Source of the DNA: Halogeometricum borinquense DSM 11551
Lineage (GTDB): Archaea; Halobacteriota; Halobacteria; Halobacteriales; Haloferacaceae
Assembly: GCF_000172995.2 (NCBI RefSeq)
Contig: NC_014729.1
Location: forward strand, 2,760,001 to 2,792,000
Length of the DNA: 32,000 bases
Reading direction: 5' to 3'
Within the stretch, counting starts at the first letter, position 1. Each line of letters starts with the position of its first letter. Below, piece by piece: positions 2,902 to 26,702 of the stretch. Made by a program: the position numbers and the translations under genes. The notes beneath the pieces were generated by a model, which saw nothing but the letters and a program-made list of their open reading frames with translations, had not been told where the DNA came from and did no database searches.

Positions 2902-2907
2902 ACGTTC

Positions 2908-9041: not shown

Positions 9042-9044
9042 GAG

Positions 9045-12300: not shown

Positions 12301-12523
12301 CCGAGTCGGTCACGGAGTCAGCAGCGTCCGAGACGGTGTCGGTGATGCCGTCCCAGAACCCGCCACCGCCGCCCGAGTCGTTCGACGAGGACGAAGAGTG
12401 GGACGATCCCGAGGACCCCGACGAGCCGCTGCTCGAGGAACTACTCGACTGAGAGCCCGACGAACTACCGGAATCACCCGATTCGGATCCGGAATAGCCG
12501 GGGATGTTGTCTAAGAATCCCAT
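9338..12523 (-). CDS. Giant (1061 aa) low-complexity/repeat protein with poly-Ser/Gly tracts, 22-aa tandem repeats, a Gly-rich hydrophobic segment, a globular middle region and a Pro/Gly-rich SYPPxGG region
   Basis: A single uninterrupted ORF. The ATG directly abuts the upstream stop (TAGATG). Composition is extremely acidic, S/G/D/T-rich at the N-terminus. See the repeat features and findings. Confidence 0.9.
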   Translation of the reverse strand: MGFLDNIPGYSGSESGDSGSSSGSQSSSSSSSGSSGSSGSSHSSSSSNDSGGGGGFWDGITDTVSDAADSVTDSVGIGGSSGSSQEAGRDHSGSSLDSPTSSSSSSSDSGGFFDDVGSAVESGVDTVTDTASDIGNDVGSSVDDGIDSVTDTASDIGNDVGNSVDDGIDSVTDTASDVVNGVGDSVGEGVDTVTDTASDVTNDVGNSVDSGIDSATDTATDVVSDVGNSVSGGVDTVGETASNVGNAVEESVENSAENTGEAVNNAEFNTNISDDLTKSGGLLSEDQEQQVRSVAKDINDYKKTIETDEGGVPDSQEGVPEQLLEGAAKAGVDFLNVPQHITTAETGIEVAQNAPDAVEEYGPGAVGETVTAFGREAGEAMVNEARSSPVEFVGGAGLGLLTGFGVGRLTTKVGIGSKMPVRVETAKVPDGGDVTTYRGLTTKLPGSNPTPRIGVTNHRPTVGTPDVDLQGPPKRPDSSGVAPTSPIETSIWDTNLRNQLEGTDLQRYEAGREIAERLGDRSRTDAVVDRVSGGTDTTAEKGIRNAQQIPDEAAPEVTEWLKTTDSELGGSVSQLMQTGKARTPDDIDIYTGDTDKAQKELFDILSKYEDRPMQRRGGIEVKTEDGWDHMVDINDRSRARGKKDWSGDLHGPTRSADGVKIQPVESQVNAKIEGGMRLFGEGEIAPKTWRSKDVVDVGTIAERMAEQQSKSLNPITRWRARGTKAAADSWQDAWGDLSLPDENYGSWGDLEDEFGTTTLRNPNPPSPEIPDVDLPQEAQAFLADSRGQAGLPSGRAVDVDTDTTARVADSDTNTYNGPDRSPDTDSDSDGARASQYAYKDGADASDPTPVVPLGYPDPDVGSGYGGAPTGGEPDVPPYGGSGSGGPGSGYLPPSGGVGSPDSSYPPSGGDGSGGSDPSYPPPGGDSNDGGGGPGPSYPPPGGDGGGDGSGGGPSYPPSSSGGSGGGDGGLPLRGPWDDDDRRRRDDSNDDEQERIDQFAPLVGYGEDWVNPVASATEALDATLASAERSTAVDDALDSANAAFEETLAGIDDNAGYGGGHR
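9614..9961 (-). repeat. Pro/Gly-rich degenerate repeats (SYPPxGG-type motif, about 5 copies) near the C-terminus of the giant protein
   Basis: Protein stretch PPYGGSGSGGPGSGYLPPSGGVGSPDSSYPPSGGDGSGGSDPSYPPPGGDSNDGGGGPGPSYPPPGGDGGGDGSGGGPSYPPSSSGG. Confidence 0.8.
11750..12187 (-). repeat. About 6.5 tandem copies of a 66-nt (22-aa = 2 x 11-aa) repeat in the giant protein gene
   Basis: The units are DSVTDTASDIGNDVGSSVDDGI / DSVTDTASDIGNDVGNSVDDGI / DSVTDTASDVVNGVGDSVGEGV / DTVTDTASDVTNDVGNSVDSGI / DSATDTATDVVSDVGNSVSGGV / DTVGETASNVGNAVEESVENSA. The DNA copies are visibly similar but not identical. Confidence 0.9.
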
Positions 12524-13528
12524 CTACGGGAGCACCCCCGACGGTGGCATAATCATACCCGCGCCGCCCATCGGGATCGAGATCCCACCACCACTGCCAG
12601 CCGCAGTGAACCCGATGTACGCGACAATCGCACCAAGCATGAACGCGCCCATGAGCAGTCCCGCTTGCCCGAGCGGACCGAGCGACGCGAAGCCCTGTTG
12701 ACCTTTCTTCGCATTCTCCGCAACGCGGTGGAACTGTTGCGGCTTGACGTTGAACGGCGCGGCGTGGATCGTATCACGGAGGTCCACGACCTTCCGAGTC
12801 GGGAGCATCGTCTCCCACTCGTCGATCACCGTCTTGCCGCCGTCCGTGAGCGGATCATCCTCGTCGTCTCCGACGCGGTCGCGGGCGGCATCAACACCGT
12901 CACCGAGCCGGTCCCGAGCCGATCCGACGCTCTCACCGAGCTTATCGCGGGCGCGACGACCTTCATCCGCGAGGACCTGCGTGCCGTTCACGAGGCTATC
13001 TGCGATCTGGGTTCCGGCCGCAGCGATCAGTTCCGGACCGTCCTCTTGGGCTTTCCACGTCGCATAGTCAATCGTCGAGAGGTCCTCGGCGTAGTGCTGC
13101 ATCTTGATCCGTGCCTGCCGTCCGACCTCACCGGAGGCCGGTTCGGCAAGCGCGCCGAGGCCGTCGTAGGCGATTGCGAGCGCAGTCCCGCCATACCAAC
13201 CGCCCGGATCTCCGCCGACGCCGCTCGCGTCGTAGAACTCACGACCGTCGGCTGTCGGGACCCAGTACCCGTTATTCTCGCCGTCGTAGGTCGCCGGCTT
13301 GAGCGACCACAGGCCGTCCTCGTCCTTGATCGCCATGAGCGTCTTGCCCATAATCCGTGATCCACGGCCGATCAGTCGCCGCCCGAGCTTGTCTCGGACA
13401 CTGCCGACCGGGATATTGTGACCGCCCATGATCAGGAATATCGAGAGAACCGAGATCACCCCGACGATCGGCATGACCTTGTCCCACAAAATCTGCAAGA
13501 ACAGATTGAGCCACGGCATGAGCGCCAT
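12524..13528 (-). CDS. Membrane protein (334 aa) with an N-terminal TM, a soluble middle and Gly-rich C-terminal TM segments
   Basis: N-terminal helix VMPIVGVISVLSIFLIMGG and C-terminal helices LGQAGLLMGAFMLGAIVAYIGFTAAGSGGG. There is an internal 11-aa periodic stretch ARDKLGESVGS/ARDRLGDGVDA/ARDRVGDDEDD. GGAGGTG lies 8 nt upstream of the ATG. Confidence 0.85.
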   Translation of the reverse strand: MALMPWLNLFLQILWDKVMPIVGVISVLSIFLIMGGHNIPVGSVRDKLGRRLIGRGSRIMGKTLMAIKDEDGLWSLKPATYDGENNGYWVPTADGREFYDASGVGGDPGGWYGGTALAIAYDGLGALAEPASGEVGRQARIKMQHYAEDLSTIDYATWKAQEDGPELIAAAGTQIADSLVNGTQVLADEGRRARDKLGESVGSARDRLGDGVDAARDRVGDDEDDPLTDGGKTVIDEWETMLPTRKVVDLRDTIHAAPFNVKPQQFHRVAENAKKGQQGFASLGPLGQAGLLMGAFMLGAIVAYIGFTAAGSGGGISIPMGGAGMIMPPSGVLP

Positions 13529-13600
13529 CTACGGCTCACCTCCGTTGGATTTCAGCTGTTCGTCCATCGTGAAGTACACGATATTTTCGTTGTTTGACAT
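13529..13600 (-). CDS. Possible 23-codon micro-ORF (MSNNENIVYFTMDEQLKSNGGEP) bridging two operon genes
   Basis: It is not in the ORF track because it is under 60 aa. Its ATG lies 3 nt after the upstream TAA, and its TAG directly abuts the next ATG (TAGATG). Its last codons carry the GGAGGTG that serves the next gene. Confidence 0.3.
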   Translation of the reverse strand: MSNNENIVYFTMDEQLKSNGGEP

Positions 13601-13603
13601 GGG

Positions 13604-14164
13604 TTATCCCACCAATTTCGAGAGAAGACCGCCGCTGCTGTCGTCGCGTTCCTCGACGATTCTGCGCTCTGACTGTTGCTCTGCGAGGAGCTTCTGTTGC
13701 CACCCGTCCCGGGAACGTGTGTTGCGCTCGTAGGCCGCGTCGCGGGTGTCCCGGGCCTCGTGGATCTCTGTCGGCGAGAACGGCCACGGTTTGCCGTCAA
13801 GGCCGGCCACCCTCCGTCGCGGCCCCTGCCATATCGACTCCGAGGGCGGTGCGCTCGCGAGGAGGAGATCCATGTTGATATCGAGCTCGTGCCGGCGATA
13901 CCACAGCTCCGCCTCGTCGAGTTTGCCGAGGATATGGTCCTGGTTCAGCTCCGACGCCCACAACTTCGCGGCGTCGGGCGGCGCTCCCGACCGCGAGAGG
14001 GTCGAGAGGAGATCGCCAGCCGGGTGGTCACCGTAGTTCATGCCACGCGTTGCGGCATCGCGGTCCCACGTCCGGGGTTGCCAGTCATCGTTATTCGCCG
14101 TACTCCGTCCGTTTGCGGGGTTCTCTACAGTCTTCGTGTGTCCGTTAGTTCGTGCGTTACCCAC
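13604..14164 (-). CDS. Soluble hypothetical protein (186 aa), the only clearly non-membrane protein of the operon
   Basis: It has no hydrophobic helices. The GTG start has GAGGTGA 6 nt upstream. Composition is mixed-charge and W-rich. Confidence 0.8.
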   Translation of the reverse strand: MGNARTNGHTKTVENPANGRSTANNDDWQPRTWDRDAATRGMNYGDHPAGDLLSTLSRSGAPPDAAKLWASELNQDHILGKLDEAELWYRRHELDINMDLLLASAPPSESIWQGPRRRVAGLDGKPWPFSPTEIHEARDTRDAAYERNTRSRDGWQQKLLAEQQSERRIVEERDDSSGGLLSKLVG

Positions 14165-14166
14165 GT

Positions 14167-14514
14167 TTAGTCACCTCGTTGGGGTTTTTCGCGCTGTTCG
14201 GGTCCGGTCGGAGCCACCGGGTTATCCTTCCCGAGGACCGCCTCGACCGGATGTTCGGGGAGCTTGTCGAGTCCTTCGAGTATCGTCATGGCGAGCATAA
14301 ACAGGAGACCGCCGAGCCCGAGCGCGAACATGCCGAGCATTGTCCGCGGATCGCCGCCGGTGAGAGGTTCAACAGCGAACGAACTGATTGAGAACGCGCC
14401 GAAGAACACCATGCTCGCCGGCATGGTCGTGAGCGGTGCTCGACGGTCTATGAGTGCTATTTTGGCAGCCCCGAGCGCACCGAAAAGAAGTGCGAGATAA
14501 ACAGGTACGAGCAA
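14167..14514 (-). CDS. Small 3-TM membrane protein (115 aa)
   Basis: The TTG start follows a perfect GGAGGTGATC located in the end of the upstream gene. There are three hydrophobic helices. Confidence 0.75.
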   Translation of the reverse strand: MLVPVYLALLFGALGAAKIALIDRRAPLTTMPASMVFFGAFSISSFAVEPLTGGDPRTMLGMFALGLGGLLFMLAMTILEGLDKLPEHPVEAVLGKDNPVAPTGPEQREKPQRGD

Positions 14515-14520
14515 CGAAGA

Positions 14521-14997
14521 TCACCTCCGTCCACGTCGCCCGCCGCCACCGAACCCGCCGACGAGCCCCAGAATGAGGGCTGCGACGAGGACGATCACGG
14601 CGACCGCGCCGAGGACGAACGCGCTCCCGATCGTGCCGATCGAGTTGCGCGCCATGTCCGGCTTGTGGTCGAAAGCGTAGTCGATCTCCGCGGTCGCACC
14701 GTCTGTTGTACTCGTCGTACTATACCATGCTACCGAGTGATTTCCGGGATACCACTCATAGTCGGTTCCCTCAGTGAGGTTCGTACCCGAACTGTTCGTG
14801 ATCGTCTCGTTTTCATAGTATTTCTCGCCGTACGTCTTGTCAACCGACGTTGCGTTGCCCACGTCTATCGTGATCGACTCGTTCGCGACGCTCGATGTCG
14901 CCATAGCCGGCATCGTGCCGAAAATCGAGGACACAACGTAGATCCCGACGATCAGCATGACCGCCACGGTGACCATCTGGTTAAACGAGTCTTCCAC
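14521..14997 (-). CDS. 2-TM protein with a sequon-rich ectodomain; paralog of the C-terminal half of 15047..15625
   Basis: It shares FNQMVTVAVMLIVGIYV... and ...AVIVLVAALILGLVGGFGGGGRRGRR with its neighbour. The loop has NES, NAT, NET, NSS, NLT and NHS sequons. The track start GTG 15006 lies inside the SD GGAGGTGA, so GTG 14997 (5 nt after it) is preferred. Confidence 0.8.
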   Translation of the reverse strand: MEDSFNQMVTVAVMLIVGIYVVSSIFGTMPAMATSSVANESITIDVGNATSVDKTYGEKYYENETITNSSGTNLTEGTDYEWYPGNHSVAWYSTTSTTDGATAEIDYAFDHKPDMARNSIGTIGSAFVLGAVAVIVLVAALILGLVGGFGGGGRRGRR

Positions 14998-15046
14998 GTG
15001 TCTCACCTCCGTTCATAAGAGTGGTTTTAGGGTGTGAGATGGGTGT

Positions 15047-15625
15047 TTAGCGGCGACCCCGTCCGCGACCACCGAAGCCGCCGACGAGCCCGAGGATCAC
15101 CGAGGCGACGAGGACGATAATCGCGACAGACCCAAGAGTGAACGCGTTACCCGTCGTTGACTTGACGGTGTTTGTTGAGTTCGCGAGTTCGGGGTTCGAC
15201 GGCGTCGGCATCGTCGAACTGATCTGAGCGAACACGTAGATCCCGACGATCAGCGTGACCGCGGCCGACACCATGCGAGTGAATGTCGCTTCAATCGCCG
15301 CGTAGACCTGGGAATCCTCACCGAGGCGCTCGCCGATACCGAGTTCCTCGTCAACCTCATCCCACTGCCGTCCGGCGTAGAGATCGGCCATTTCCTGCTG
15401 AATCTCCGCGGCCGTGCGGACGTCCTCGATCCCACCCTTGAGGCGCTCGCGAACGTCGTTCACGCCGTTGATGATTGCCGCCTGTCCGATAGCGACGAGA
15501 CCCGCACGCTGTTCGGAGCTGAGTCCTTCTGTCTCGATCTCAGCGTCGAGAACGTGGTCGTCGAACTGTTCCGCGTCGTTGCTGCGCCGGTCGTATCCGG
15601 CGTGGGGGGTTGCATGAACCTCCAT
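15047..15625 (-). CDS. First gene of the long operon: an acidic N-terminal soluble domain plus two TM helices, ending GLVGGFGGRGRGRR
   Basis: The ATG start sits at the edge of a 114-nt divergent intergenic region. TM helices are TFTRMVSAAVTLIVGIYVFAQI and GSVAIIVLVASVILGLVGG. Confidence 0.85.
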   Translation of the reverse strand: MEVHATPHAGYDRRSNDAEQFDDHVLDAEIETEGLSSEQRAGLVAIGQAAIINGVNDVRERLKGGIEDVRTAAEIQQEMADLYAGRQWDEVDEELGIGERLGEDSQVYAAIEATFTRMVSAAVTLIVGIYVFAQISSTMPTPSNPELANSTNTVKSTTGNAFTLGSVAIIVLVASVILGLVGGFGGRGRGRR

Positions 15626-15739
15626 ACAGCCGAGAATTATCTCCGCTCGCTTAGATTGGCCAACTTAAGGGCCATTGGCGTGGTTTTGATAAGGTTAAGG
15701 ACAACCGTTTTTGTAAGACTATCAGTATTGAGTATATGT
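15626..15739. promoter_or_regulatory. Divergent promoter region between the minus-strand membrane operon and the plus-strand NTPase module
   Basis: It is AT-richer than its flanks. A TTTTTGTAA element is centred about 28 nt upstream of ATG 15740, and an AATCTAA element about 29 nt upstream of ATG 15625. This spacing fits leaderless haloarchaeal transcripts. Confidence 0.5.
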
Positions 15740-16012
15740 ATGGCAAGCGCCAATCCATCTACCCAAGGCGCGGACGGGACGCGAAAGACGACCCCGCAAG
15801 GCGACGTCAACAGTGAGGTACTCGGGGAGAAAGTGCACGATGATATAAAGACGAGGCAGGCCCAACAAAATGGGAACTCTGAGAACTGCATTGAGGTCAA
15901 TCTCACAAAATTCGGAAAGCAATATCACGGAATCGAGAAAGGACAGCTCCTTGAGGTCGAAGTTCGCGAAGGCGGTATTCTGATCAAACCCTGTGAATTC
16001 GCCGAACGATGA
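15740..16012 (+). CDS. AbrB/SpoVT-like small DNA-binding protein (90 aa)
   Basis: The C-terminal IEVNLTKFGKQYHGIEKGQLLEVEVREGGILIKP resembles the swapped-hairpin AbrB/MazE fold motif. I chose internal ATG 15740 because the N-terminus of the track ORF from 15554 overlaps the divergent gene and reads as junk. Confidence 0.7.
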   Translation: MASANPSTQGADGTRKTTPQGDVNSEVLGEKVHDDIKTRQAQQNGNSENCIEVNLTKFGKQYHGIEKGQLLEVEVREGGILIKPCEFAER

Positions 16013-16632
16013 GCGACAGTCGCCCCGATAACCGTGACAAGGACGGCCCGACGGGCTCTGATCGACTGATACTCGACGCTTACGAACGAGCCGCTGAACA
16101 CCGCGAGCGCGCGGAACTTGCTCCGTTCGTTCCCGACAACGTGGTGAATTCGGAGATCGCCTCGGCCGAATACTTCGCGTCGGTGATCGAGTATTACAGT
16201 CGGCTTGAGCCGCACCTCCCCGACCGACCGCACTATTGGGAACAGGTCGCGCTCATGCCGAATCCCGTCGGATCCGACCGGAACAAGGTCGTCGATGCGC
16301 TCATGGATTTCTACAACGTCGATGCGGAGACAGCGCTCAACTGCCTTGAGTGGATGGAGGAAGATCCGAGCTTCCCAATCGAGGCACGCGACGACGAACA
16401 GATTATGCACGGGCTCCGCTCCCTGCAAGCGTGGCGCTCGCGCACGACACCAGACACCCAACAGTACGACGACGTCCTTGAGGGCCGCGTCACCGTTCGC
16501 CGCGAACTCCCACAGTATCTCCCGCGTAAGCACACTCTTCGGGTACACACGGTTCTCGACGAGGCGGCGAGCAAGCTCGGGTTCGGTCCCGAGGGTGACA
16601 TCCCCGAAGAATGGGAGAAAGACCCGATCTAA
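16009..16632 (+). CDS. Hypothetical acidic protein (207 aa)
   Basis: ATGA overlap with the AbrB-like gene. Composition is halophile-like. I recognise no motif. Confidence 0.8.
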   Translation: MSDSRPDNRDKDGPTGSDRLILDAYERAAEHRERAELAPFVPDNVVNSEIASAEYFASVIEYYSRLEPHLPDRPHYWEQVALMPNPVGSDRNKVVDALMDFYNVDAETALNCLEWMEEDPSFPIEARDDEQIMHGLRSLQAWRSRTTPDTQQYDDVLEGRVTVRRELPQYLPRKHTLRVHTVLDEAASKLGFGPEGDIPEEWEKDPI

Positions 16633-16647
16633 CCGAGGTATCTTTTC

Positions 16648-17547
16648 ATGGCGAAAGCTCAAATCACACATCCCACGGCCGACCGTATCCCCGAACCCGT
16701 CCGGAACTCTCCAATCCTCCGCAAGGTGATCTACCGGCGGGTTCACGAATGGAACCAGAACTTCATGGGCGTCGTCGTCGGCGAGACGGGCAAGGGCAAG
16801 TCCTACGCCGCTCTCCGTCTCGCCGAGGCTCTCTACCCCGATTTCGACGTCGACAACGTCGCATTCACTCTCGAGGAGTTTTTCGGACTCGTCGAGGAGG
16901 ACCAACCCGAGGGATCGGTGATCGTCCTCGACGAGGCCGGCGTCGGCGCCTCACATCGCGACTGGTACGACGACGCCCACCAGCACCTCAACTACGTGTT
17001 GCAAACGTGGCGCCACCAGAACCGGATCGCGATCCTCACGCTTCCCGAGCTCGACAAGCTCGATCCCGTCGCTCGGTCCCGGCTCCACGGCTATTTCGAG
17101 ATGATCCGGATCAACCACGACGAGGAGTGGTCGCGGGCTCAGTTCAAGAGGATCAAGACGAACCCGAGGACCGGCGAGAACCACTACCCGTACCCTCGAC
17201 TCCGGTGGGACGGGACCAAACGGAAATATAAAGGACTCACCTTCGGCCTCCCGTCCGTGGATCTGATCGGTGCTTATGAAGAACGTAAAGAGAAGTTCAC
17301 AGACTCCCTAAACAAGACGGCAAAGGAGGCCGTTGCCCCTGACGATGATGACGAGGAGGAGTATAGCCCGCGTGAGGCCGTTGACGAGATCGAGTCACGC
17401 GACGCCGTTGACGCCTACCTTGAGGACTCGCCCGGTGGACAGTACATCAACCGGAACCTCCTCAAGGTGGACTACGGGCTTACAGAGAACGAGAGTAAGA
17501 CCGTCAAGAGTCTGCTAAAGCGGAGGTTCGACCTTGACGTCATGTGA
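16648..17547 (+). CDS. P-loop NTPase (299 aa), a small virus/plasmid-type morphogenesis or packaging-like ATPase candidate
   Basis: Walker A is GVVVGETGKGKSYAA and Walker B is SVIVLDEAGV. GAGGT lies 9 nt upstream of the ATG. The C-terminal tail is acidic. Confidence 0.9.
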   Translation: MAKAQITHPTADRIPEPVRNSPILRKVIYRRVHEWNQNFMGVVVGETGKGKSYAALRLAEALYPDFDVDNVAFTLEEFFGLVEEDQPEGSVIVLDEAGVGASHRDWYDDAHQHLNYVLQTWRHQNRIAILTLPELDKLDPVARSRLHGYFEMIRINHDEEWSRAQFKRIKTNPRTGENHYPYPRLRWDGTKRKYKGLTFGLPSVDLIGAYEERKEKFTDSLNKTAKEAVAPDDDDEEEYSPREAVDEIESRDAVDAYLEDSPGGQYINRNLLKVDYGLTENESKTVKSLLKRRFDLDVM

Positions 17548-17565
17548 CGCTCTAAGGGCATATCC

Positions 17566-17590
17566 GAGGGGGACCCTCCCCCTCCCCCCC
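17566..17590 (+). terminator. G/C homopolymer hairpin (GAGGGGG-ACCCT-CCCCCTC) followed by a C7 run after the NTPase gene
   Basis: A 7-bp perfect stem at 17566-17572/17578-17584 and a C7 run at 17584-17590, located 19 nt after the stop codon. Confidence 0.35.
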
Positions 17591-17712
17591 TTATGGTCAG
17601 TTAGCTGTACGCGTGTTATATCGCGGGCCGGTTCGGCGCCGCAACGATGCTGCCACCATGATACCGGGGTTGCACCCACGGCGAAGCGCGGAGCGCGAGG
17701 AGGTCGCTCGAC

Positions 17713-18891
17713 ATGAGTTCGCACTTAAAAATAGAAGACGTTCACGACGCGATTGAGAACGGCGCTCGGACGAAGAATGAAATCGCCGAGGTCGTTGGTA
17801 AATCGCCCTCGAATACGAACCGCAAACTCAAGGCGTGGGTCGAGAACGAGGACGTCCGCCTGGATCGGCACTGGAACCACGGCGACGGTGGCGGCTACGT
17901 CTACACGATTCCCGCCAAGGACGAGATCGACGATGCGGAGGACCTGCCGATCCTCGGCTCTCGCAACTACGACTGGGACCGGTTCGTTCCCGACACCGAG
18001 GACGTTCCCGTGTACCGGCAGGCCGAGCGCGAACTCGACGAGATCAAGGCCGTCCTCAAGGCGCGCGGCGCGACCGGGCAACTCCCACGGTTCCAGATCT
18101 CCGGTCCGACTGGGTGCGGCAAGACGACCCTCGCCGAGTATCTTGCTGCTGACCGCGGCGCGCCCATGATCACGATTCAATGCAACTACGCGCTCCGCGG
18201 CGCGGAACTCCTCGGAACGCCTCAGATCGTCGGTGGTGACGTCATGTGGGTGGACGGTCCGCTCACTCGTGCCCTCCTCGCCTCACGAGAACGCGAGGTC
18301 CTTGTCCTGATCGACGAGGTCACACGCGCAACCGCGCGGTCGAAAGGAACGCTGTTTCCGGCGCTCGATCACCGCGCCGAGGTCAAGATCAAGCCCCGCG
18401 GCAATGAGTTGATCTCCGGCGTAGCCGAGGACATGATCACAGTCGCCACGATGAACGAAGGGCAGGATTACGAAACGGAGGAGCTTGACGCCGCTGAGGA
18501 GCGTCGTCTCGGACTCAAGTGGGAGCTTCCTTACCTCGGGCAGCACTCGCCCGACCTCGAGGCCGAACTCGTTGCGACCAAGACACCGATGCCGAGTACC
18601 GACGCCCGCGTTCTCGTCGATGCCGCCAACGTCGTACGCGACGCCGCCGAGGACGAGTCGGAGCCCGCGATCACCCGCGGTGTCCCGACTCCTGCGGTGA
18701 TCTCTTGGGCACAAACTGCCTACGCGTTCGCTGAGCGTGGGCTCAACGATCCTGTCGGTCGTGCCATGCAGTCCGCGGTCGTCAAGCCCGTCTACGACGA
18801 GGTCGCGGGTGACGTCGCCGGTAAGATACACTCAGCGTTGAAGCGAGCCGACCATGAGCCCGACCTCGGCCCCGAAGAGGTGACGGCATGA
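17713..18891 (+). CDS. MoxR/CbbQ/GvpN-like AAA+ (AAA_5) ATPase with an N-terminal wHTH-like domain
   Basis: Walker A is ISGPTGCGKTTLAEYL and Walker B is VLVLIDEVTRA. The N-terminal TKNEIAEVVGKSPSNTNRKLKAWVEN is HTH-like. GGAGGT lies 9 nt upstream of the ATG. Confidence 0.9.
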   Translation: MSSHLKIEDVHDAIENGARTKNEIAEVVGKSPSNTNRKLKAWVENEDVRLDRHWNHGDGGGYVYTIPAKDEIDDAEDLPILGSRNYDWDRFVPDTEDVPVYRQAERELDEIKAVLKARGATGQLPRFQISGPTGCGKTTLAEYLAADRGAPMITIQCNYALRGAELLGTPQIVGGDVMWVDGPLTRALLASREREVLVLIDEVTRATARSKGTLFPALDHRAEVKIKPRGNELISGVAEDMITVATMNEGQDYETEELDAAEERRLGLKWELPYLGQHSPDLEAELVATKTPMPSTDARVLVDAANVVRDAAEDESEPAITRGVPTPAVISWAQTAYAFAERGLNDPVGRAMQSAVVKPVYDEVAGDVAGKIHSALKRADHEPDLGPEEVTA

Positions 18892-19073
18892 GCGCGGTCG
18901 TCGCGAGGGCGTTCGCTCGATTCGTCTCTTGGCTTTCTCCTCCGGAGGACGTCGCCGACGAGCTCCCCGCGTGGGACGAGTGCTACAACTGTGGAGGGAC
19001 GATTGAGCCGCCCGAGCGTCCGAGCATGGTCCTCGTCGAGTGTTCAGAGTGCGGCCGTCGAAACATCCGATGA
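18888..19073 (+). CDS. Small zinc-ribbon protein (61 aa)
   Basis: CYNCGG...x17...CSECG gives two CxxC pairs. There is an ATGA overlap with the AAA+ gene. Confidence 0.7.
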   Translation: MSAVVARAFARFVSWLSPPEDVADELPAWDECYNCGGTIEPPERPSMVLVECSECGRRNIR

Positions 19074-19092
19074 ACGAACCGCGACGCCACCG

Positions 19093-19129
19093 CGCACCGG
19101 AGCGGTGCGGTTCGGTGCGCCTCGCACCG
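19093..19129 (+). promoter_or_regulatory. Four-segment alternative-hairpin element upstream of the VWA gene
   Basis: The segments are CGCACCG (19093-19099), CGGTGCG (19103-19109), CGGTGCG (19113-19119) and CGCACCG (19123-19129). Segments 1 and 4 can each pair with either 2 or 3. Confidence 0.4.
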
Positions 19130-19139
19130 TCACGACGCT

Positions 19140-20348
19140 ATGAGTGAGATCGGCGACGTGATCGCGGTGATCCCGCAGCACTACGTTAACGAGGCCGACG
19201 TCTCGTTTACCACCGAATCCCTCGACGTCTCTGGTGTCCTCGTCGATGTCCTCGAGCCCGAGGAGAATGACGGCCGCCGCACTCTGGTTGTTGACAACGA
19301 CGGATCCGAGTACCATCTCGCCGCCCGCGAGCGCATGGCCGCCGACGGACTCACCGAGTGGACACCCGGGCCCGTGCGGACGAGCTCGAGCGTCGAACTC
19401 GGTGAACTCCGCTCAATCGACGTCGATCCACCTGACGAGGATGAGGGTGCTGCCGTCATTGATGACGTCGAGGCGCTCGACAGTGAGGATCTCTCTAGCG
19501 AAATCGGCGAGATAGGAGGGATCCACCGCGGTGGCAAAGCGACCTCAAGGCTCGCTGATCGGCGGAGCGCCCGGAACCACCGCGTCGATAACTACTCTGG
19601 GAGCGCGCCCGCGAGCGACGTTCGCGACGAGCTCCGAGCCGGTGGGACCGCAGCGGCGGTCGTGCGCGAATTCAAACGCCTTGTCGCCGAGGAAATCCGT
19701 GTCACTGATCGCGTCGGTGAGCGGCCGGATGTCCGCAACGTGATCCGGTTCCTTGCGGGTGACGACACCGTTTTCGACGATCTGTGGTCCCGCACCGAGA
19801 CGAACGACACTGGCGACCGCGTCGTCGGAATCGCACTCGACATGAGTGGCAGTATGGGCAACGCCGAGCATGATGCGAAAGCTGCGGTCGGCGCGCTCGC
19901 CCTTGCCGCGAGTGCCGTCGATGACGATGTCGTGATCACCGCGTTCCCCCAGGGAAAGCGTAAGAGTGCGCTCGTCACCGGTCCCTACGAGTCGTGGCGG
20001 TGGCAGCACCTCGATGCCACGGAACCCGGCGGTGGGACGCCCATGCTTCCGGCACTCCGCGACGTTACCCGACTTATGCGTCCACTCAAGGGTCGTGAGC
20101 GCGTGCTGTTTGCGATCACCGATGGCCGGCCGAGTCGCGCCGATAGGGTCGCCGAGCTCGTCGAAGATCTCCGAACCTACGGGACAGCGGTCGTTGGGTT
20201 TGGGTTCGGTCGCGTGAACGAGTCCACGCTCGAAGAGCTATTTGGGAGAGACGGCTACCGGCACGTTGACGTTGAGGATCTCCCGCGGGCGCTCGTCGGT
20301 GCGTACCTGGATCAACTCGAACTCGACGCGACGCTCGACAGGCAGTGA
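19140..20348 (+). CDS. von Willebrand factor A (VWA) domain protein with a complete MIDAS motif, CobT/NorD-like partner of the AAA+ ATPase
   Basis: MIDAS elements are GIALDMSGSMG (DxSxS), GGGTP (Thr) and AITDGRP (Asp). The N-terminal region is about 200 aa and acidic. Confidence 0.9.
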   Translation: MSEIGDVIAVIPQHYVNEADVSFTTESLDVSGVLVDVLEPEENDGRRTLVVDNDGSEYHLAARERMAADGLTEWTPGPVRTSSSVELGELRSIDVDPPDEDEGAAVIDDVEALDSEDLSSEIGEIGGIHRGGKATSRLADRRSARNHRVDNYSGSAPASDVRDELRAGGTAAAVVREFKRLVAEEIRVTDRVGERPDVRNVIRFLAGDDTVFDDLWSRTETNDTGDRVVGIALDMSGSMGNAEHDAKAAVGALALAASAVDDDVVITAFPQGKRKSALVTGPYESWRWQHLDATEPGGGTPMLPALRDVTRLMRPLKGRERVLFAITDGRPSRADRVAELVEDLRTYGTAVVGFGFGRVNESTLEELFGRDGYRHVDVEDLPRALVGAYLDQLELDATLDRQ

Positions 20349-20353
20349 GGCAG

Positions 20354-20358
20354 AAAAA
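20354..20358 (-). terminator. Oligo-T (minus strand) immediately after the 3-gene membrane operon, within the 12-nt convergent gap to the VWA gene
   Basis: The minus strand reads TAG TCTTTTTCTGCC directly after the stop at 20361. Confidence 0.35.
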
Positions 20359-20360
20359 GA

Positions 20361-20690
20361 CTACAGGTTGAACAACTCGCGGACACCGCCGCCTCCGCTG
20401 TCAATTCCCGTCTCGTTGTGCTTGAGCCATGCGTGGGCTCGTTCCTGTGCTTCGTCTGTAGTGTAGCATGTCGAGACGAGTTCGGCAGCAAGCGGTTCCC
20501 CGTGTTCATCAACGTCGCTTGCGAGGACGAGCACGATCTCCCCGGAATCAACGGCGATGACATGGGTACGGTCGCTGTTGCGGTGCTCGCGCTCCCACAC
20601 CTCGAGGACTTCGCCGCCGATCTCCTCGTAGCCGTGGCGATGACGGCGGTTTCGAGGGCCGGTGGCGCGGTGGTCCCCGCGTTCGCTCAT
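20361..20690 (-). CDS. Small soluble acidic protein (109 aa)
   Basis: ATG 20690 overlaps the upstream stop (ATGA). The N-terminal 104 residues of the track ORF 20361..21002 are Arg/Ser-rich read-through of the neighbouring gene. Confidence 0.65.
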   Translation of the reverse strand: MSERGDHRATGPRNRRHRHGYEEIGGEVLEVWEREHRNSDRTHVIAVDSGEIVLVLASDVDEHGEPLAAELVSTCYTTDEAQERAHAWLKHNETGIDSGGGGVRELFNL

Positions 20691-20920
20691 GCGATCTCCG
20701 TGCCCTCCGCCTCGTTCTTCTCGGATCCGACGACCTGGCTTAGGTAGATCAGGCCGTTCTGGATCGTGAGTACGGCGAGCCCACCCAACGCGATCAACGC
20801 CGGGAGGAACGACACCGGGGAACTCACGATCAGGTGCGCGAGAAGCGCGACCGCGAGGAGTCCAAGCATTAGTGAGAGTGCGATACGTCCCTCGACGACA
20901 TCGTAGTGCGTTACGGTCAT
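20687..20920 (-). CDS. Small 2-TM membrane protein (77 aa)
   Basis: ATG 20920 overlaps the upstream stop (ATGA). There are two hydrophobic helices. Confidence 0.65.
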   Translation of the reverse strand: MTVTHYDVVEGRIALSLMLGLLAVALLAHLIVSSPVSFLPALIALGGLAVLTIQNGLIYLSQVVGSEKNEAEGTEIA

Positions 20921-21348
20921 TGTTCTGTGAACAGGATCGGCTTCTCCGACACTCCGTAGGCGACGAGCACCTCGCCGAGTTCGAGGAGTACGACGACGAC
21001 ACACCCCGTGACGACGAGCGGCGTGAACGCGTTGGCCGTCATCGAGGCGACGATCAACGCCAACACTGCCATCAATCCCGCTGCGGCGAGGCCGTTCTTA
21101 GCGACCCGCTCGAGATCCTCCGAAGTCGGCTCGTCCGGAAGGATCTGGGCTGCGAATCGGCTCGCGAGGATGTCGGCGACGCGGTCAGTCACTCGAGGTG
21201 GGGCAAGGAACTCACGCGGTTCCCGAGCGCCGCTCAGGAGACGGGAAACGACCCACCCGAGTGAGAGACCGAACGTGGCGATCAACACGTAGGCAACGGG
21301 ACCGGAGGGCGCTGCCACCGCGCCAGCCGTAGTCGGTACGCTCGGCAC
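20917..21348 (-). CDS. Membrane protein (143 aa, about 4 TM)
   Basis: The GTG start has GAGGTG 9 nt upstream. Hydrophobic helices are separated by a charged loop. Confidence 0.7.
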   Translation of the reverse strand: MPSVPTTAGAVAAPSGPVAYVLIATFGLSLGWVVSRLLSGAREPREFLAPPRVTDRVADILASRFAAQILPDEPTSEDLERVAKNGLAAAGLMAVLALIVASMTANAFTPLVVTGCVVVVLLELGEVLVAYGVSEKPILFTEQ

Positions 21349-21560
21349 TATGGGGCACCTCGGTTCGGGAGTAGTCGGAGAGTCATACGGTCGTGTAGTG
21401 GCTGCAACTACGCCCTAACCGTCTCCTCGCGGTTTCATAAACCACGGCGGATAACCTTATTCGAATAAGATTTGGTTTAAACAGTTTACTCCCGCTATCT
21501 GTTGTGTTGAATCTCAACATCTGCCAAACTCTTATCAATTCACATCGCAGAGAACCGCAT

Positions 21561-21743
21561 ATGCCGAAGATATTCAGAAACAACATGAATTGGCATCATG
21601 ATGGTCCTGGTGGTTGCAAAGTTGTTGATCCAGCAGGTGTCGATAATCACCTTGTTCACAACAAGGACTGGGGTGAAGCACTCGGTCTAATAGAGGATGA
21701 CGCTGGTGATCGGTGCGGCCAATGCAATTGGCCTGACGGATAG
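21561..21743 (+). CDS. Possible small Cys-containing protein (60 aa)
   Basis: The ATG lies within the track ORF 21504..21743, and there is a C...CxxC pattern (CKVV...CGQC). It sits in an AT-rich region. Support is weak. Confidence 0.3.
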   Translation: MPKIFRNNMNWHHDGPGGCKVVDPAGVDNHLVHNKDWGEALGLIEDDAGDRCGQCNWPDG

Positions 21744-21924
21744 TTTGGTTAGCGCTAAGTAGTCGTTGGCAATTAACGTCGAGCTATTCTGGTTTCATCG
21801 CAACTTTCTCTGCAAGATGTACTGAACAGTCTCCTCGATATAGACGAAGCTGTAGGAATACGATTCTTTCCGTGTTCAGCAGCTATCCTGTCATTTGAAA
21901 TATTTTTGTCCTATACAGATATAT

Positions 21925-22263
21925 ATGGGAAATAAAGACCTTAGAACTGCATTCAAGCAGTCGATCAATTGCATGGATGATGATGTTGATTGGGTAGCTA
22001 CGACAAACCTAGACGATCCGTCATCTGAAATGACCGGTTACGAGTCCTTCGATGTTGTACTCCATTTGAATACGACCGATACGCAGATTGCACGCGAGAT
22101 TGTGGGAGATGCTGGTGAGAAGATTAAAGACCGAGACGACTGGGACGGCAAGTTACTGTTTGAAACTATCTGGGAGGGGTCCCCAGAAATCGAGATGAGA
22201 GTACGGGTGTACTTGACGTCTGAGGCAAGACAGAACGGGAGTGGCGCTGAGTTATATTTCTAG
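21925..22263 (+). CDS. Hypothetical acidic protein (112 aa)
   Basis: ATG 21925 is preceded by an AT-rich TATA-like AAATATTT about 25 nt upstream. The track ORF starts at TTG 21895. Confidence 0.45.
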   Translation: MGNKDLRTAFKQSINCMDDDVDWVATTNLDDPSSEMTGYESFDVVLHLNTTDTQIAREIVGDAGEKIKDRDDWDGKLLFETIWEGSPEIEMRVRVYLTSEARQNGSGAELYF

Positions 22264-22467
22264 TAGCCGTTGATTCACCACGGATGCCTTTCAGGTTGTA
22301 ACTCTCCGTTTATCCGATGCCGTATGGTTTCTACGATTGTTTGAATACTTTCCCATTACCGACAACAACCGTTTATGACGACGTGATCACGGTGAACCTG
22401 GTGCTGCTATTGATGCTAAACGTTTGTCGTACTTCTTGAACTGATTTGATTTGCATTAAGCACATTG

Positions 22468-22488
22468 CCGACTTGTTATACAAGTCGG
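22468..22488. promoter_or_regulatory. Perfect 21-nt palindrome CCGACTTGT-TAT-ACAAGTCGG, 89 nt upstream of the small recombinase gene
   Basis: The 9-bp arms are exactly complementary around a 3-nt centre. This geometry is typical of a tyrosine-recombinase core site or an operator. Confidence 0.4.
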
Positions 22489-22576
22489 AAGCGAACCCCC
22501 TGTATCACCCACACTTGCACCTCGATCACGTCGGTGTCCGGTGCCTCTAAGTGAAATGTTGTTATAAGAAATCTTC

Positions 22577-23182
22577 ATGCGATTGGAAGCGACCGCGAAA
22601 GAGGATCAGTACAAGATCTGGATGACTGATTCCGAACTCAAACAGTTAGAGCGCGTGGCCGCAAATCAACGCGACTACTTGATCATTCGACTTGGGGGGC
22701 GAGTCGGTCTCCGCGCCTTCGAGATTCCACAGATTTGCCCGAAGCACGTGAAGCGGACCGACGATGGCGAGCACTATCGCCTGCGCGTGCCCGAAGGAAA
22801 GGACACGACCGGGAACGGTGGAAAGCCTCGGGACGCCTATCTGCCGAAAGACGTCGAAGGAGACATACACCGGTTTCAGAACGCCGAGGACATCGGACGG
22901 AATCAGCCACTTGTTGACCTCACTGAGCGCGGTGTTCGCAATGTCGTGAAGCGCACGGCCACCCGTGCAGCTGAAGAGACCGGCGACGAGGACTTTCGAC
23001 ACGTCAGTAGCCACGATCTCCGGCGTCGGTTCGCTCAACGCCTCTTGGTTGACCGGCAGATGAACCCGCGAGTCGTCATGGCTGTTGGCGGGTGGGACTC
23101 CTTTCAGGCAATCGAACCCTACCTCAACGCACCGACGCCCGAGGTCGTCAATCAGGCCTTCGAAGAGGCAGAGCTGTCGTAA
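22577..23182 (+). CDS. Minimal tyrosine recombinase (201 aa, catalytic domain only)
   Basis: Catalytic signature: R in GGRVGLRAFE, K in GGKPRDAYLP, HxxR in SSHDLRRRFA, W in GGWDS and Y in IEPYL. There is no N-terminal SAM-like core-binding domain. Confidence 0.85.
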   Translation: MRLEATAKEDQYKIWMTDSELKQLERVAANQRDYLIIRLGGRVGLRAFEIPQICPKHVKRTDDGEHYRLRVPEGKDTTGNGGKPRDAYLPKDVEGDIHRFQNAEDIGRNQPLVDLTERGVRNVVKRTATRAAEETGDEDFRHVSSHDLRRRFAQRLLVDRQMNPRVVMAVGGWDSFQAIEPYLNAPTPEVVNQAFEEAELS

Positions 23183-23411
23183 CGTCGTTGAGAAGTAAAT
23201 CTTGGTGGCTCTGTTGGAAGTTCCAGAAATTGATGTATCTCGCGTGCTGAATTTGAATATCTATCCTCCTGAACCAGCTGTTAGAATCACTAAGAGAACT
23301 CACATGTAGGAGTTCTAATTGTTCCCGATCCACCTTCTACTCGCCGTATAATCTGGTTTGACCGTCTGTATAGGCTAAGTTTGATATGTTGCCATACCAT
23401 AATATACAATC

Positions 23412-23636
23412 ATGTCTAAAGAGCGAGCAAAATCCCGAATCGAGGCTGAATTTTCGGATAGGAGTGAAATCCCAGACGCCAGCGGTAGCAAGAGCATAGA
23501 TGTGCGTATCCCGAATTCAGGCTTGGATATTGATGACGTTCAGGAAATCGACTACGTAAACGACGTACTTGAGGAAGAAGACGAGTTCCGAGTCTATGTT
23601 TCGGCGGACTCTAACGTGGGCGTCTGGACGACCTAA
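23412..23636 (+). CDS. Hypothetical acidic protein (74 aa)
   Basis: An ATG ORF in the AT-rich island with an acidic C-terminal half. I recognise no motif. Confidence 0.4.
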   Translation: MSKERAKSRIEAEFSDRSEIPDASGSKSIDVRIPNSGLDIDDVQEIDYVNDVLEEEDEFRVYVSADSNVGVWTT

Positions 23637-23866
23637 GTCAGTATCGACCAGCCATCCGCGCTACTGCAAAGCTTACCGTCTGTATCTACCAATCTATTCA
23701 TCCCAGACTGTGATTGGTCAATCAACGATGCACGCTCTGTATTCAGCACACTCACGAGTCCCATCAAGTTTTGAGGATTTCAACAGAGCCATCCTAATCT
23801 ATTCGCGGTCGGTGTCACGGAATATCTCAGGTGCCGCGTCTTCAATATCGAGGACGTTGAACATGG

Positions 23867-24067
23867 TTACGCCCGGAGAATCGCCGCTTCGTCAACCATT
23901 CCGTCGAGATGATCCTCAAGCGCCTCAGCATTCTTGTCGTCGAGTCCGACGAGCACGATCCCGGTGAGATCCGTCTCGGCGAGTTTGTCAAGGAGTTCCT
24001 CCTGATCGGTTGTTGCCTCCGTGACGAGTCGTGTTTGTATGGGTGTGCCGTCGTTCTCGGTACTCAT
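23867..24067 (-). CDS. Hypothetical acidic protein (66 aa)
   Basis: ATG 24067 overlaps the upstream stop (ATGA). The track ORF starts at 24082. Confidence 0.45.
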   Translation of the reverse strand: MSTENDGTPIQTRLVTEATTDQEELLDKLAETDLTGIVLVGLDDKNAEALEDHLDGMVDEAAILRA

Positions 24068-24264
24068 GCTCTCACCGTCCAAGAGTCCCGCACGCGTCCG
24101 CCCGTTCCGTGTATATTGATCTCGTCGCCGGGGGCCGCCCGACGCCGGGCTGCATCGACCGCGTTCTGCTGCGTGCGATGAGAACTTGTTTTTCTACCGT
24201 TCGCTTCGACTTTCCAGTCGTAGGGCTCGCCGCGCGCGGTCGGCATGATGTTGTACCGCGTCAT
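24064..24264 (-). CDS. DUF2188-like small protein (66 aa)
   Basis: WKVEANGRKTSSHRTQQNAVDAARRRAAPGDEINIHGTGGRVRDS fits the DUF2188 pattern as I remember it (W.V...g......t...Ai..Ar..A......l.IHg.dG.ir). Confidence 0.55.
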   Translation of the reverse strand: MTRYNIMPTARGEPYDWKVEANGRKTSSHRTQQNAVDAARRRAAPGDEINIHGTGGRVRDSWTVRA

Positions 24265-24370
24265 GAGACTCTCTCGACGCCGTTCATCCTAATCACCCCA
24301 TGTTTAACCTTCTGCGATAGGTTCCAGGGGCAGAAATTTAGGCAAGAGAGCGTGTCGGATAGTGGTACAC

Positions 24371-24655
24371 ATGAGTCTCCGAAGCTTCCTCAACAATGCA
24401 CTCGGATTTGGTGGCAGTAGTCCGCAGTATACGCCCGGCGAGGTGACCTGGTCCGTTGCATACGACGTTGACGATTACGATGGGCCAGGTTGGTATCTCA
24501 CTGCAAAAGGTCCGGAGGTACACGAGACGGATGGCCCCTTCCGCTCGAAAGGAGCGGCAATAGATGCTGCACGGGAAAGGGGATCCGAAGGAGACGAACT
24601 CAGAACCTGGGACAAAGACGCCTTAGAACCAGAAATAACAACGATAAGGCGTTGA
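24371..24655 (+). CDS. Second, divergent DUF2188-like small protein (94 aa)
   Basis: GWYLTAKGPEVHETDGPFRSKGAAIDAARERGSEGDELRTWDKD has the same pattern with a degenerate C-terminal half. I preferred ATG 24371 over the track GTG 24362. Confidence 0.5.
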   Translation: MSLRSFLNNALGFGGSSPQYTPGEVTWSVAYDVDDYDGPGWYLTAKGPEVHETDGPFRSKGAAIDAARERGSEGDELRTWDKDALEPEITTIRR

Positions 24656-24682
24656 GTTACTCTATCTAGTCCACCGATTTAG

Positions 24683-25921: not shown

Positions 25922-25977
25922 TTGAGCAGACTACTTTCACATACTGTGATAATTACTTCGACCAAGAAGCTCAACAA

Positions 25978-26283
25978 TTACTCGTCAGGTTCAAGCTCTT
26001 CGGCCTTAATCTCGCCTTCAAGATACGCTAATCCCTTTTCAGTAATTCGATAATAACGTTTAGTCTCGTCAGTAAGCTCTAACAAGCCTATTTTTTCCAA
26101 GTCACCTATCCGACGCGAAAAGGTACTCCGACTCTTCTCTGAATAACCGCGTACTTCCGCAATATTGTGATGAACGGTTCCCGGCTGAAGCTCTACCCGT
26201 TCCCCCGATATAGACTCCATTTCCCGGAAAAACTCCAAGATGGCGTCATCTACTTCGTTCATCCACGGTACCCGGGGGCGCAT
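25978..26283 (-). CDS. phiH1-repressor-like winged-helix transcription regulator
   Basis: The N-terminal PWMNEVDDAILEFF, followed by NIAEVRGYSEKSRSTFSRRIGDLEKIGLLE...YYRITEKG, is typical of the haloarchaeal virus/plasmid wHTH repressor family. Confidence 0.85.
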   Translation of the reverse strand: MRPRVPWMNEVDDAILEFFREMESISGERVELQPGTVHHNIAEVRGYSEKSRSTFSRRIGDLEKIGLLELTDETKRYYRITEKGLAYLEGEIKAEELEPDE

Positions 26284-26463
26284 GTCCCCTTATCTTTGGT
26301 TCCGATGTATAGCCGCACCGAAAAGTCTGCTGACTGAATCATATATCCTATGTATGAGTAATATTGTGCAAACATATAAATAGGACGGACATTACGAGAG
26401 TTATAACGGAAGCACTTCGCGGACCCGTCGCTCTTCGGCGGTGGGTCCACTTGTCAGAACAAA

Positions 26464-26493
26464 GCGGACCCCGTGTTAGGGGCACGGGTCCGC
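26464..26493. other. Strong GC hairpin (11 bp with one bulge, 7-nt loop) in the repressor/integrase-operon intergenic region
   Basis: GCGGACCCCGTG-TTAGGGG-CACGGGTCCGC. A related imperfect GGACCC...GGGTCC hairpin lies about 40 nt upstream. Confidence 0.4.
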
Positions 26494-26578
26494 GTGGACT
26501 TCCGTGACCTACCACGAAAGCCATGTACAACGACTCGATATGGGGGCTTGAAACCCTCGAACGAACGACAGTATCGGT

Positions 26579-26649: not shown

Positions 26650-26702
26650 TCCCCATACAAGGCTCGACTCTTTTATGGGGGAAATCATCGGCATCGACTG
26701 CG

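Follow-up and report, generated by a model that had tools for sequence, protein, structure and literature searches.

A probable MoxR-VWA motor-adaptor cassette beside the core gene block of a putative spindle-shaped provirus in Halogeometricum borinquense

The 32,000-nt stretch of the Halogeometricum borinquense DSM 11551 genome analysed here (hereafter the window; coordinates are positions in it, and + and - refer to its strands) is, judged by its genes, an integrated LSV-48N-type spindle-shaped (lemon-shaped) provirus of this archaeon. Within it, six consecutive open reading frames (ORFs) on the + strand at 15740-20348 had been taken in an earlier note for one wired system. Our analysis favours, with a probability of roughly 55%, a composite explanation: the region joins a core block of the spindle virus to an accessory cassette, in which a MoxR-type AAA+ ATPase and a protein with a VWA domain would work as a motor and its adaptor. 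New here is a viral MoxR-VWA pair in which a winged helix-turn-helix (wHTH) domain defines the clade and a zinc ribbon is optional; the pair is cargo of a provirus family that was described only recently.

The identity of the provirus is supported by LSV-48N homologues, a matching layout and exact copies in H. borinquense assemblies. Eight window proteins have homologues in LSV-48N, including a large Ig-like protein, an integrase (61% identity) and a protein combining DUF7845 with a wHTH (66%). On the LSV-48N map, a minus-strand structural operon is divergent from plus-strand genes for proteins of 98 and 196 aa and for an NTPase of 318 aa, and the layout of the window is the same, although most structural proteins of the two elements have diverged beyond BLAST detection. 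The exact copies of the locus on H. borinquense assemblies include an identical MoxR protein. LSV-48N and Tebi-SV1 have been placed in the newly proposed spindle-virus family Almyrocitroviridae. The mobile-element setting proposed for the six genes was borne out, and the neighbouring "membrane operon" is the virion structural module of the provirus. At the DNA level, a search of phage records gave no match, and plasmid records gave three short AAA matches only.

The six ORFs lie at 15740-16012, 16009-16632, 16648-17547, 17713-18891, 18888-19073 and 19140-20348 and encode proteins of 90, 207, 299, 392, 61 and 402 residues, respectively. The GC content at third codon positions (GC3) is 0.73-0.78 in all six, a range to be expected of genuine haloarchaeal genes. 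Inspection of the sequence shows the ATGA overlaps at 16009 and 18888; these overlaps, the six ORFs and the 114-bp divergent spacer are all as the earlier note described them. The six genes are more than chance ORFs, because Halolamina salifodinae and Halarchaeum salinum keep five of them, all but the zinc-ribbon ORF, in the same order, with amino-acid identities of 62-90%.

Comparison of loci divides the region into what appear to be two adjacent units. The first (15740-17547) is a family-core block of genes 1-3, which would be transcribed divergently from the capsid operon; the second (17548-20348) is the accessory MoxR/VWA cassette, which would be expressed behind its own conserved 165-nt leader. 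The core block adjoins a structural operon without MoxR/VWA in LSV-48N (L003), in Haloprofundus halobius (L097) and in a metagenome contig (L098), the last with 52% identity in the 207-aa protein, 53% in the NTPase and 42-59% in structural proteins. Furthermore, MoxR/VWA homologues were seen in none of the 54 metagenomic loci that carry an NTPase homologue; in 21 of these, at least 2.5 kb of downstream sequence is available. The same MoxR-VWA clade occurs without core block or structural operon in HCTV-2, HHTV-2 and Hardycor1, tailed haloviruses in which the pair sits in replication or accessory modules. It is also present in other tailed-virus contigs, adjoining a D5 primase and a terminase in L016 and a DNA ligase in L017, and in the plasmid-like elements L001, L002 and L015 (a Salinigranum rubrum plasmid, a Halomontanus rarus plasmid and one metagenome contig). 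Because the core block occurs without the pair and the pair without the core block, the slot after the NTPase is best read as a cargo site, and MoxR-VWA as a cassette that moves among haloarchaeal mobile elements. The view of the six genes as one wired system is not supported by this comparison, given that the core block recurs without MoxR/VWA and MoxR/VWA recurs without the structural operon.

Within spindle-type elements the cassette is stable: it stands directly 3' of the NTPase in at least seven such loci (the window, L011, L012, L013, L014, L099 and L100), of which L013 is much more distant, with a MoxR identity of 48%. The slot 3' of the NTPase holds MoxR-VWA in the clade of the window, a glycosyltransferase gene in L097 (11245-12414), DUF2188 and resolvase genes in L098 (6938-7841), and a 154-aa gene followed by an integrase in LSV-48N (15461-16685). 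The plasmid-like elements L001, L002 and L015 are related to one another, and each has a long operon on one strand, which encodes proteins of 700 aa and a beta-helix protein besides the MoxR-VWA pair. For eight large proteins of L002, Pfam gave no match, and this element type could represent another virus group.

The motor of the cassette is a wHTH-fused MoxR AAA+ ATPase of the NorQ/CbbQ type (17713-18891, +). Its wHTH is encoded at 17731-17907, Walker A at 18103-18126, Walker B within 18307-18321 and the CbbQ_C lid at approximately 18559-18804. The protein matches Pfam AAA_5 at 1e-16 and passes the CbbQ_C cutoff narrowly (20.7 bits against 20.6), and its PDB sequence matches are NorQ (5e-23) and CbbQ (8e-18). 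The AlphaFold2 (AF2) model, with a predicted local distance difference test score (pLDDT) of 90.5, superimposes on NorQ and CbbQ2 in Foldseek with TM-scores of 0.86-0.87 and a root-mean-square deviation of 3 Å. Invariant in 39 members of the MoxR clade are GPTGCGKT at residues 131-138, DE at 201-202, N248, R264/R265 and R309, which cover Walker A and B, sensor 1, the arginine finger and sensor 2. With an AAA_5 core, a CbbQ_C lid and a partner carrying VWA plus MIDAS (the metal-ion-dependent adhesion site) all present, the protein is a member of the CbbQ/NorQ subfamily. Residues 7-65 of the AF2 model fold as helix-helix-helix-strand-strand, a winged helix, and the homologous domain of HHTV-2 gp10 reaches the Pfam thresholds of HTH_20 (27.1 bits against 27) and Penicillinase_R (25.4 against 22.6). 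Since the domain is kept throughout the clade, is recognised at Pfam level in HHTV-2 gp10 and forms a winged helix in the model, the N-terminal wHTH fusion is the defining feature of this MoxR clade.

The partner is a VWA-MIDAS protein (19140-20348, +), in which an acidic, clade-specific N-terminus (residues 1 to about 130) is followed by a conserved linker and the VWA domain (about 133-402), the latter forming the C-terminal end of the protein. It matches Pfam VWA at 1.7e-5 and has a complete MIDAS composed of D234-x-S-x-S238, T300 and D328, whose parts are encoded at 19839-19853 (DMSGS), within 20028-20042 (T) and within 20115-20126 (D). DxSxS and the D of TDG are kept in 13 of 13 sequences, and a motif ahead of the domain, GxRxDxRN..R.LAGD, is conserved. 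The N-terminal 130 residues contain 33 Asp and Glu against 7 Lys and Arg. This region differs completely between element types, with protein lengths from 287 to 784 aa. A VWA homologue accompanies MoxR in 12 of 12 further MoxR-carrying loci compared, and its identity tracks that of MoxR. Because the pre-VWA motif and the VWA-MIDAS are conserved and the N-terminus varies between element types, the protein may be an adaptor: its constant end would bind the motor and its variable end the target, as is expected of such a component.

Between MoxR and VWA lies a 61-aa zinc-ribbon ORF (18888-19073, +), coupled to MoxR by ATGA and encoding CYNC at 18981-18992 and CSEC at 19041-19052. This ORF has no homologue in any other locus compared. 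The corresponding gap holds a different zinc ribbon and a small transmembrane ORF in L011 and an ORF with two such segments in L100, and it is empty in L099, L013 and L014, where MoxR and VWA overlap. A C-terminally fused ribbon (CxxCG...CPxC) is present in 13 of 16 MoxRs of two tailed-virus-type clades and in Hardycor1. As the ribbon is fused in the tailed-virus branch, separate in the window and absent in close relatives, it appears to be a recurrent but dispensable companion of the MoxR motor. The ribbon of the window and the fused ribbons agree in position and motif, with sequences too short to decide homology. The earlier domain calls hold for the Walker NTPase, AAA_5/MoxR, the N-terminal wHTH, the zinc ribbon (CYNC...CSEC) and the complete MIDAS, and we agree that the wHTH fusion and the interposed ribbon are unusual for characterised MoxR systems.

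Ahead of MoxR, the conserved 165-nt non-coding leader (17548-17712, +) contains a G5/C5 hairpin at 17566-17584, a 19-nt block, CATGATACCGGGGTTGCAC, at 17657-17675, and a Shine-Dalgarno-like GGAGGT near the ATG. Its nucleotide identity to L011, L012 and L099 is 0.79, 0.76 and 0.61, about the same as that of the flanking genes, and the 19-mer is exact in 5 of 5 clade members. No such leader was found 5' of MoxR in L013, in the plasmid-like loci or in the tailed-virus loci, and the 19-mer has no match in IMG/VR. The leader looks like a promoter and leader with putative protein-binding sites, which would fit a separate transcription unit for MoxR/VWA. A stable RNA finds no support: the single-sequence fold z-score is +0.91, with 163 of 200 shuffles folding at least as well, and RNAalifold found little covariation among only five or six similar sequences. 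Rfam has no match to the leader and nothing credible across 15000-21500.

The mechanism that we propose follows the motor-adaptor-target model supported by the structures of NorQD and CobSTN. In analogy to NorQ-NorD, CbbQ-CbbO and CobS-CobT, the VWA adaptor would be gripped by a hexamer of MoxR and would hold a target with its MIDAS site and its variable N-terminus; that target would then be remodelled through ATP hydrolysis. Tethering of the machine to nucleic acid while it works is suggested by the clade-wide wHTH together with the zinc ribbon, which is fused in the tailed-virus homologues and split off or absent here. Our preferred reading, to which we give less than an even chance, is tentative: the pair would remodel a protein complex associated with DNA, either early or during the replicative phase. 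A wider claim is rather unlikely as it stands, namely that pair and ribbon form a previously unrecognised nucleic-acid-tethered remodeller, exchanged among spindle viruses, tailed viruses and plasmid-like elements and serving host takeover or replication. Such a remodeller would be neither a cobaltochelatase nor a virion chaperone, and it would have a control element of its own in the leader, to which the wHTH may bind. If this is true, its jobs may be the stripping or reshaping of a host DNA-bound protein or of a defence complex.

Several points weigh against the composite explanation or its parts. The constant position of the cassette 3' of the NTPase could reflect a functional link with the core block and not a mere insertion hot spot. 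The wHTH of MoxR could serve autoregulation or protein contacts instead of tethering; ATV p618, the sole characterised viral MoxR, did not bind viral DNA and has a role in the development of the virion tail. The neighbour-joining tree that separates the element types is one without support values. As for the NTPase of the core block, its own match to Pfam Zot (E 0.006, 16.5 bits) is below the cutoff of 20.3, and the PHROG families nearest to it are labelled "DnaA-like replication initiation protein" (5e-10 and 2e-8).

This Zot-like P-loop NTPase (16648-17547, +; 299 aa), a family-core gene, has Walker A GETGKGKS at residues 45-52 (16780-16803), Walker B DE at 95-96 (within 16924-16941) and a small C-terminal helical or hairpin domain. 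Among 50,697 phage records, its sole match is CDS0023 of LSV-48N, a Haloferax virus, at 42% identity. Pfam Zot is matched by 14 of 39 members of the NTPase family (best E 7e-7), and close homologues are named "zonular occludens toxin" by NCBI. The top PDB match of the AF2 model (pLDDT 88) is the Zot N-terminal domain 2r2a (1.7e-5), with a TM-score of only 0.48, and matches in BFVD include ATV ORF286 (9e-9, TM-score 0.52-0.54) and Inoviridae Zot. The modelled protein is soluble, with a small C-terminal domain and no hydrophobic segment, and the membrane-anchored C-terminal half typical of Zot/pI is missing. Searching PDB sequences with a profile of the NTPase family yielded noise only. When IMG/VR was searched with Walker patterns back-translated from the alignments, the matches listed for MoxR were distant AAA+ proteins only, and the NTPase gave nothing.

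Among the classes put forward beforehand, the NTPase appears to be Zot/pI-like and not a partition protein, and a separate Rep-Arvir initiator is encoded at 73-1689. Because the element has this initiator of its own and the virus family is released chronically, we favour for the NTPase a role in genome loading or virion assembly at the membrane, comparable to that of Zot/pI in inoviruses, and not one in replication initiation. The competing view, that it serves the element as replication initiator or helicase loader and not as assembly ATPase, draws on the DnaA-like PHROG labels. It also draws on a layout, a P-loop followed by a C-terminal (w)HTH-like domain, that resembles DnaA, some relatives having a recognisable C-terminal HTH domain, and on RFC clamp-loader subunits among the fold matches. 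We consider it somewhat unlikely, as Rep-Arvir already fills the role, the best PDB fold match and the Pfam matches of the family are to Zot, and DnaA is absent among the fold matches listed. The NTPase fold is similar to that of ATV ORF286, and ATV also carries a MoxR-VWA pair, unrelated in sequence; the parallel may or may not be meaningful.

For the MoxR-VWA pair, the alternative that fares best is a virion-morphogenesis chaperone, whose clients, to be folded, inserted or remodelled, would be the small hydrophobic proteins of capsid or envelope. ATV offers a precedent, as its p618 (MoxR) binds p892 (VWA) and virion proteins and has been assigned to tail development, and the likeness of the window NTPase model to ATV ORF286 adds to it. 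MoxR-vWA pairs of jumbo phages have likewise been proposed to act in virion assembly. The position of the cassette directly after the NTPase and opposite the structural operon, in seven spindle-type loci with MoxR identity down to 48%, also speaks for this alternative and for the assembly-machine reading of the earlier note. However, the same clade occurs in tailed viruses with unrelated HK97-type virions, outside their structural modules, and LSV-48N forms lemon-shaped virions without MoxR-VWA. Furthermore, no similarity to ATV p618 was detected at E <= 1e-3, p618 being RavA-like and the window protein NorQ/CbbQ-like. We therefore regard a chaperone of this kind as unlikely.

Less probable still is an auxiliary CobS/CobT that hijacks host CobN to raise the cobalamin supply, the role that Liu et al. 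(2021) proposed for the HCTV-2 and HHTV-2 homologues, which they called cobS and cobT. The closest viral homologues of both window proteins are indeed Saparoviridae genes annotated cobS/cobT. In addition, PHROG phrog_249, "porphyrin biosynthesis", is matched at 2e-21, and an NCBIfam "putative cobaltochelatase" model matches the VWA protein at 1.3e-6. Yet no CobS- or CobT-specific family of Pfam or NCBIfam is found in the proteins of the window, HCTV-2, HHTV-2 or Hardycor1, where CbbQ_C is matched. The NCBIfam scan gave no CobS model for the ATPase at E <= 0.01 and no equivalog for the window proteins, and the best solved relatives of the ATPase are NorQ and CbbQ. According to the description of the Brucella melitensis enzyme, CobS has two AAA+ subdomains only and neither wHTH nor zinc ribbon. 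In true CobT, a defined N-terminal domain makes contact with CobS and CobN, against a non-conserved N-terminus in the window VWA protein and its homologues of 287-784 aa. No CobN family was found among the 26 window ORFs scanned against Pfam. The earlier note had held that its reading would suffer if the pair grouped with such cobS/cobT genes of tailed haloviruses and occurred independently of the membrane operon. Both are the case, and the genes so named lack any CobS/CobT-specific domain.

A defence or superinfection-exclusion system borne by the mobile element, as also suggested at the outset, finds some footing in the variable cargo slot and in the MoxR-vWA cores predicted for NTP-dependent conflict systems, but is very improbable, since PADLOC gave only matches limited to Walker A of the P-loop (E >= 7e-5) and called no system, and since the parts that define the ternary systems of Kaur et al. 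(2020) are absent. Those systems have the order VMAP-MoxR-vWA, with VMAP or iSTAND as the third component and effectors C-terminal to vWA; in the window no VMAP or iSTAND gene and no effector domain C-terminal to VWA is present, the upstream gene encodes the Zot-like NTPase and the interposed gene the 61-aa zinc ribbon.

The remaining two genes of the core block precede the NTPase. The first (15740-16012, +) encodes the small 90-aa protein, a family-core gene product and possible AbrB/SpoVT-type regulator that occupies the position of LSV-48N CDS0021. Its "AbrB-like" label is weak: the sole indication is a sub-threshold match to Pfam MazE_antitoxin (E 0.012, 16 bits against a cutoff of 24.7), and a PDB profile search gave no match. 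The protein is 62% identical in L011 and L012 and 30% in L098 (E 2e-4), and it aligns weakly to CDS0021. The second (16009-16632, +), overlapping the first by ATGA, is a family-core ORFan of 207 aa without Pfam, PHROG or NCBIfam match. Only 12 homologues, all unannotated, were found among 5.8 billion proteins. Besides the L098 protein, LSV-48N CDS0022 is related to it at 27-29% identity, and the C-terminal motif LDxAAxKLGF is common to it and a 225-aa protein of L013.

The 114-bp divergent promoter region (15626-15739) separates the plus-strand core block from the minus-strand structural operon, whose start codon ends at 15625. A 20-bp palindrome, CTTAGATTGGCCAACTTAAG, occupies 15650-15669 and reads GCTTACTACCCGGTAGTTAAG at the same position in L011. 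Alignment with L011 and L012 shows conserved outer arms (CTTA...TAAG) and compensating changes in the inner ones; the boxes AGGTTAAGGAC and TTTTTGTAAG are also conserved in the region. The palindrome is likely an operator.

The structural (virion) operon of the provirus (4543-15625, -) encodes two small transmembrane proteins with Gly/Arg tails and large Ig-like proteins. The gene at 5656-8805 matches LSV-48N CDS0012, and that at 14521-15006 weakly matches CDS0019. The two small membrane proteins, at 14521-15006 and 15047-15625 on the minus strand, have tails rich in Gly and Arg (...GGFGGGGRRGRR and ...GGFGGRGRGRR). Between the two, the hydrophobic segments show a weak cross-match, and their counterparts in L013 end in GGGNR and GSGGGR. 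In the Tebi-SV1 paper, a small transmembrane protein was proposed as the capsid protein of the Almyrocitroviridae, and the two Gly/Arg-tailed proteins are candidate major capsid proteins of the spindle-virus group. The 1061-aa ORF at 9338-12523 (-) has a GC3 of 0.60, unusually low for the locus. The same place is occupied by 942 aa and a small opposite-strand ORF in L007 (assembly GCA_000337855.1) and by 1061 aa in L008 (run ERR481281), which suggests strain-level variation in a large structural protein.

Elsewhere in the element, the Rep-Arvir rolling-circle replication initiator (DUF7845 and wHTH; 73-1689, +) matches Pfam DUF7845 at 4e-93 and is the homologue of LSV-48N CDS0026 noted above. 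Replication initiation by the Rep-Arvir family has been demonstrated experimentally, with LSV-48N named among the carriers (PMC13107129). At 538 aa, the ORF is shorter than its LSV-48N counterpart (711 aa), and profile position 33 is where its Pfam match begins. The protein may lack part of its N-terminus, or the true start of the ORF may be at the window edge or outside it. Two stretches, at about 21000-27000 and at 2001-3000, have a GC content of 0.45-0.55 against approximately 0.60-0.65 in the rest of the element. They include a short integrase (22577-23182) and, by the gene calls of L007, a DUF2188 protein and a faintly M10-peptidase-like protein, and they look like mosaic cargo. Past the integrase at 27903-28931 the host flank likely begins; genes for DUF7847 and DnaJ-ferredoxin proteins lie at 29634-31476. 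No tRNA marking an att site was found in the window.

AAA+/vWA pairs are among the very few genes common to tailed and non-tailed archaeal viruses, and those of haloviruses are currently filed as putative cobaltochelatase subunits. As this locus shows, the same MoxR-VWA clade is also carried by lemon-shaped proviruses and plasmid-like elements. This metabolic annotation is called into question because the clade always has the wHTH, often has a zinc ribbon and has no CobS/CobT-specific domain. The locus thus offers a small, defined system for asking what a viral MoxR-VWA machine remodels. Furthermore, the comparison fixes a conserved core for a virus family described only in 2024-2026, which comprises Rep-Arvir, the structural operon and the three-gene block that encodes the small protein, the ORFan and the Zot-like NTPase.

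Among known systems, LSV-48N and Tebi-SV1 are the nearest to the element as a whole. They share with it the divergent layout, the NTPase (42%), Rep-Arvir (66%), one integrase (61%) and a large Ig-like protein. LSV-48N and the window element are both integrated in a haloarchaeal chromosome. LSV-48N differs in having no MoxR/VWA after its NTPase, and the genera of the window clade (Halogeometricum, Halolamina and Halarchaeum) are not that of LSV-48N.

For the cassette, both proteins of the window clade are found in the tailed haloviruses HCTV-2 (gp83/gp79), HHTV-2 (gp10/gp3) and Hardycor1 (aaa/vwa), where they were published as putative CobS/CobT. Their MoxRs share 33-37% identity with that of the window over residues 5-364, wHTH included, and their VWA proteins 30-32% over linker and VWA domain, with the MIDAS motif kept. 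The tailed-virus MoxRs are longer (460-517 aa), with a fused C-terminal zinc ribbon in HHTV-2 gp10 and Hardycor1 and none found in HCTV-2 gp83. Their VWA proteins (428-784 aa) have long unrelated N-terminal regions, and the adjacency and order of the genes vary.

Among characterised machines, NorQ-NorD and CbbQ-CbbO resemble the window pair in the AAA+ core (27-28% identity at the TM-scores given above), the CbbQ_C lid, the intact catalytic residues and the adjoining gene for a protein with a C-terminal VWA-MIDAS. In contrast, the window has no nitric oxide reductase or Rubisco context, a wHTH is added and the N-terminal domain of the adaptor is unrelated. ATV is likewise a spindle-shaped archaeal virus with a MoxR-VWA pair (p618/p892) and, in ORF286, a fold like that of the NTPase, but its p618 is a RavA-like virion component without DNA binding or detected sequence similarity, and host and virus family are unrelated.

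Finally, the Zot/pI proteins of filamentous phages differ from the window NTPase in their transmembrane C-terminal half, in place of which the soluble NTPase has a small helical or hairpin domain. Their N-terminal P-loop domain is its best PDB fold match, and 14 of its 39 homologues match Pfam Zot. Inoviruses and the virus type of the window are, moreover, both released without lysis, and both possess a Rep_trans-like rolling-circle initiator.

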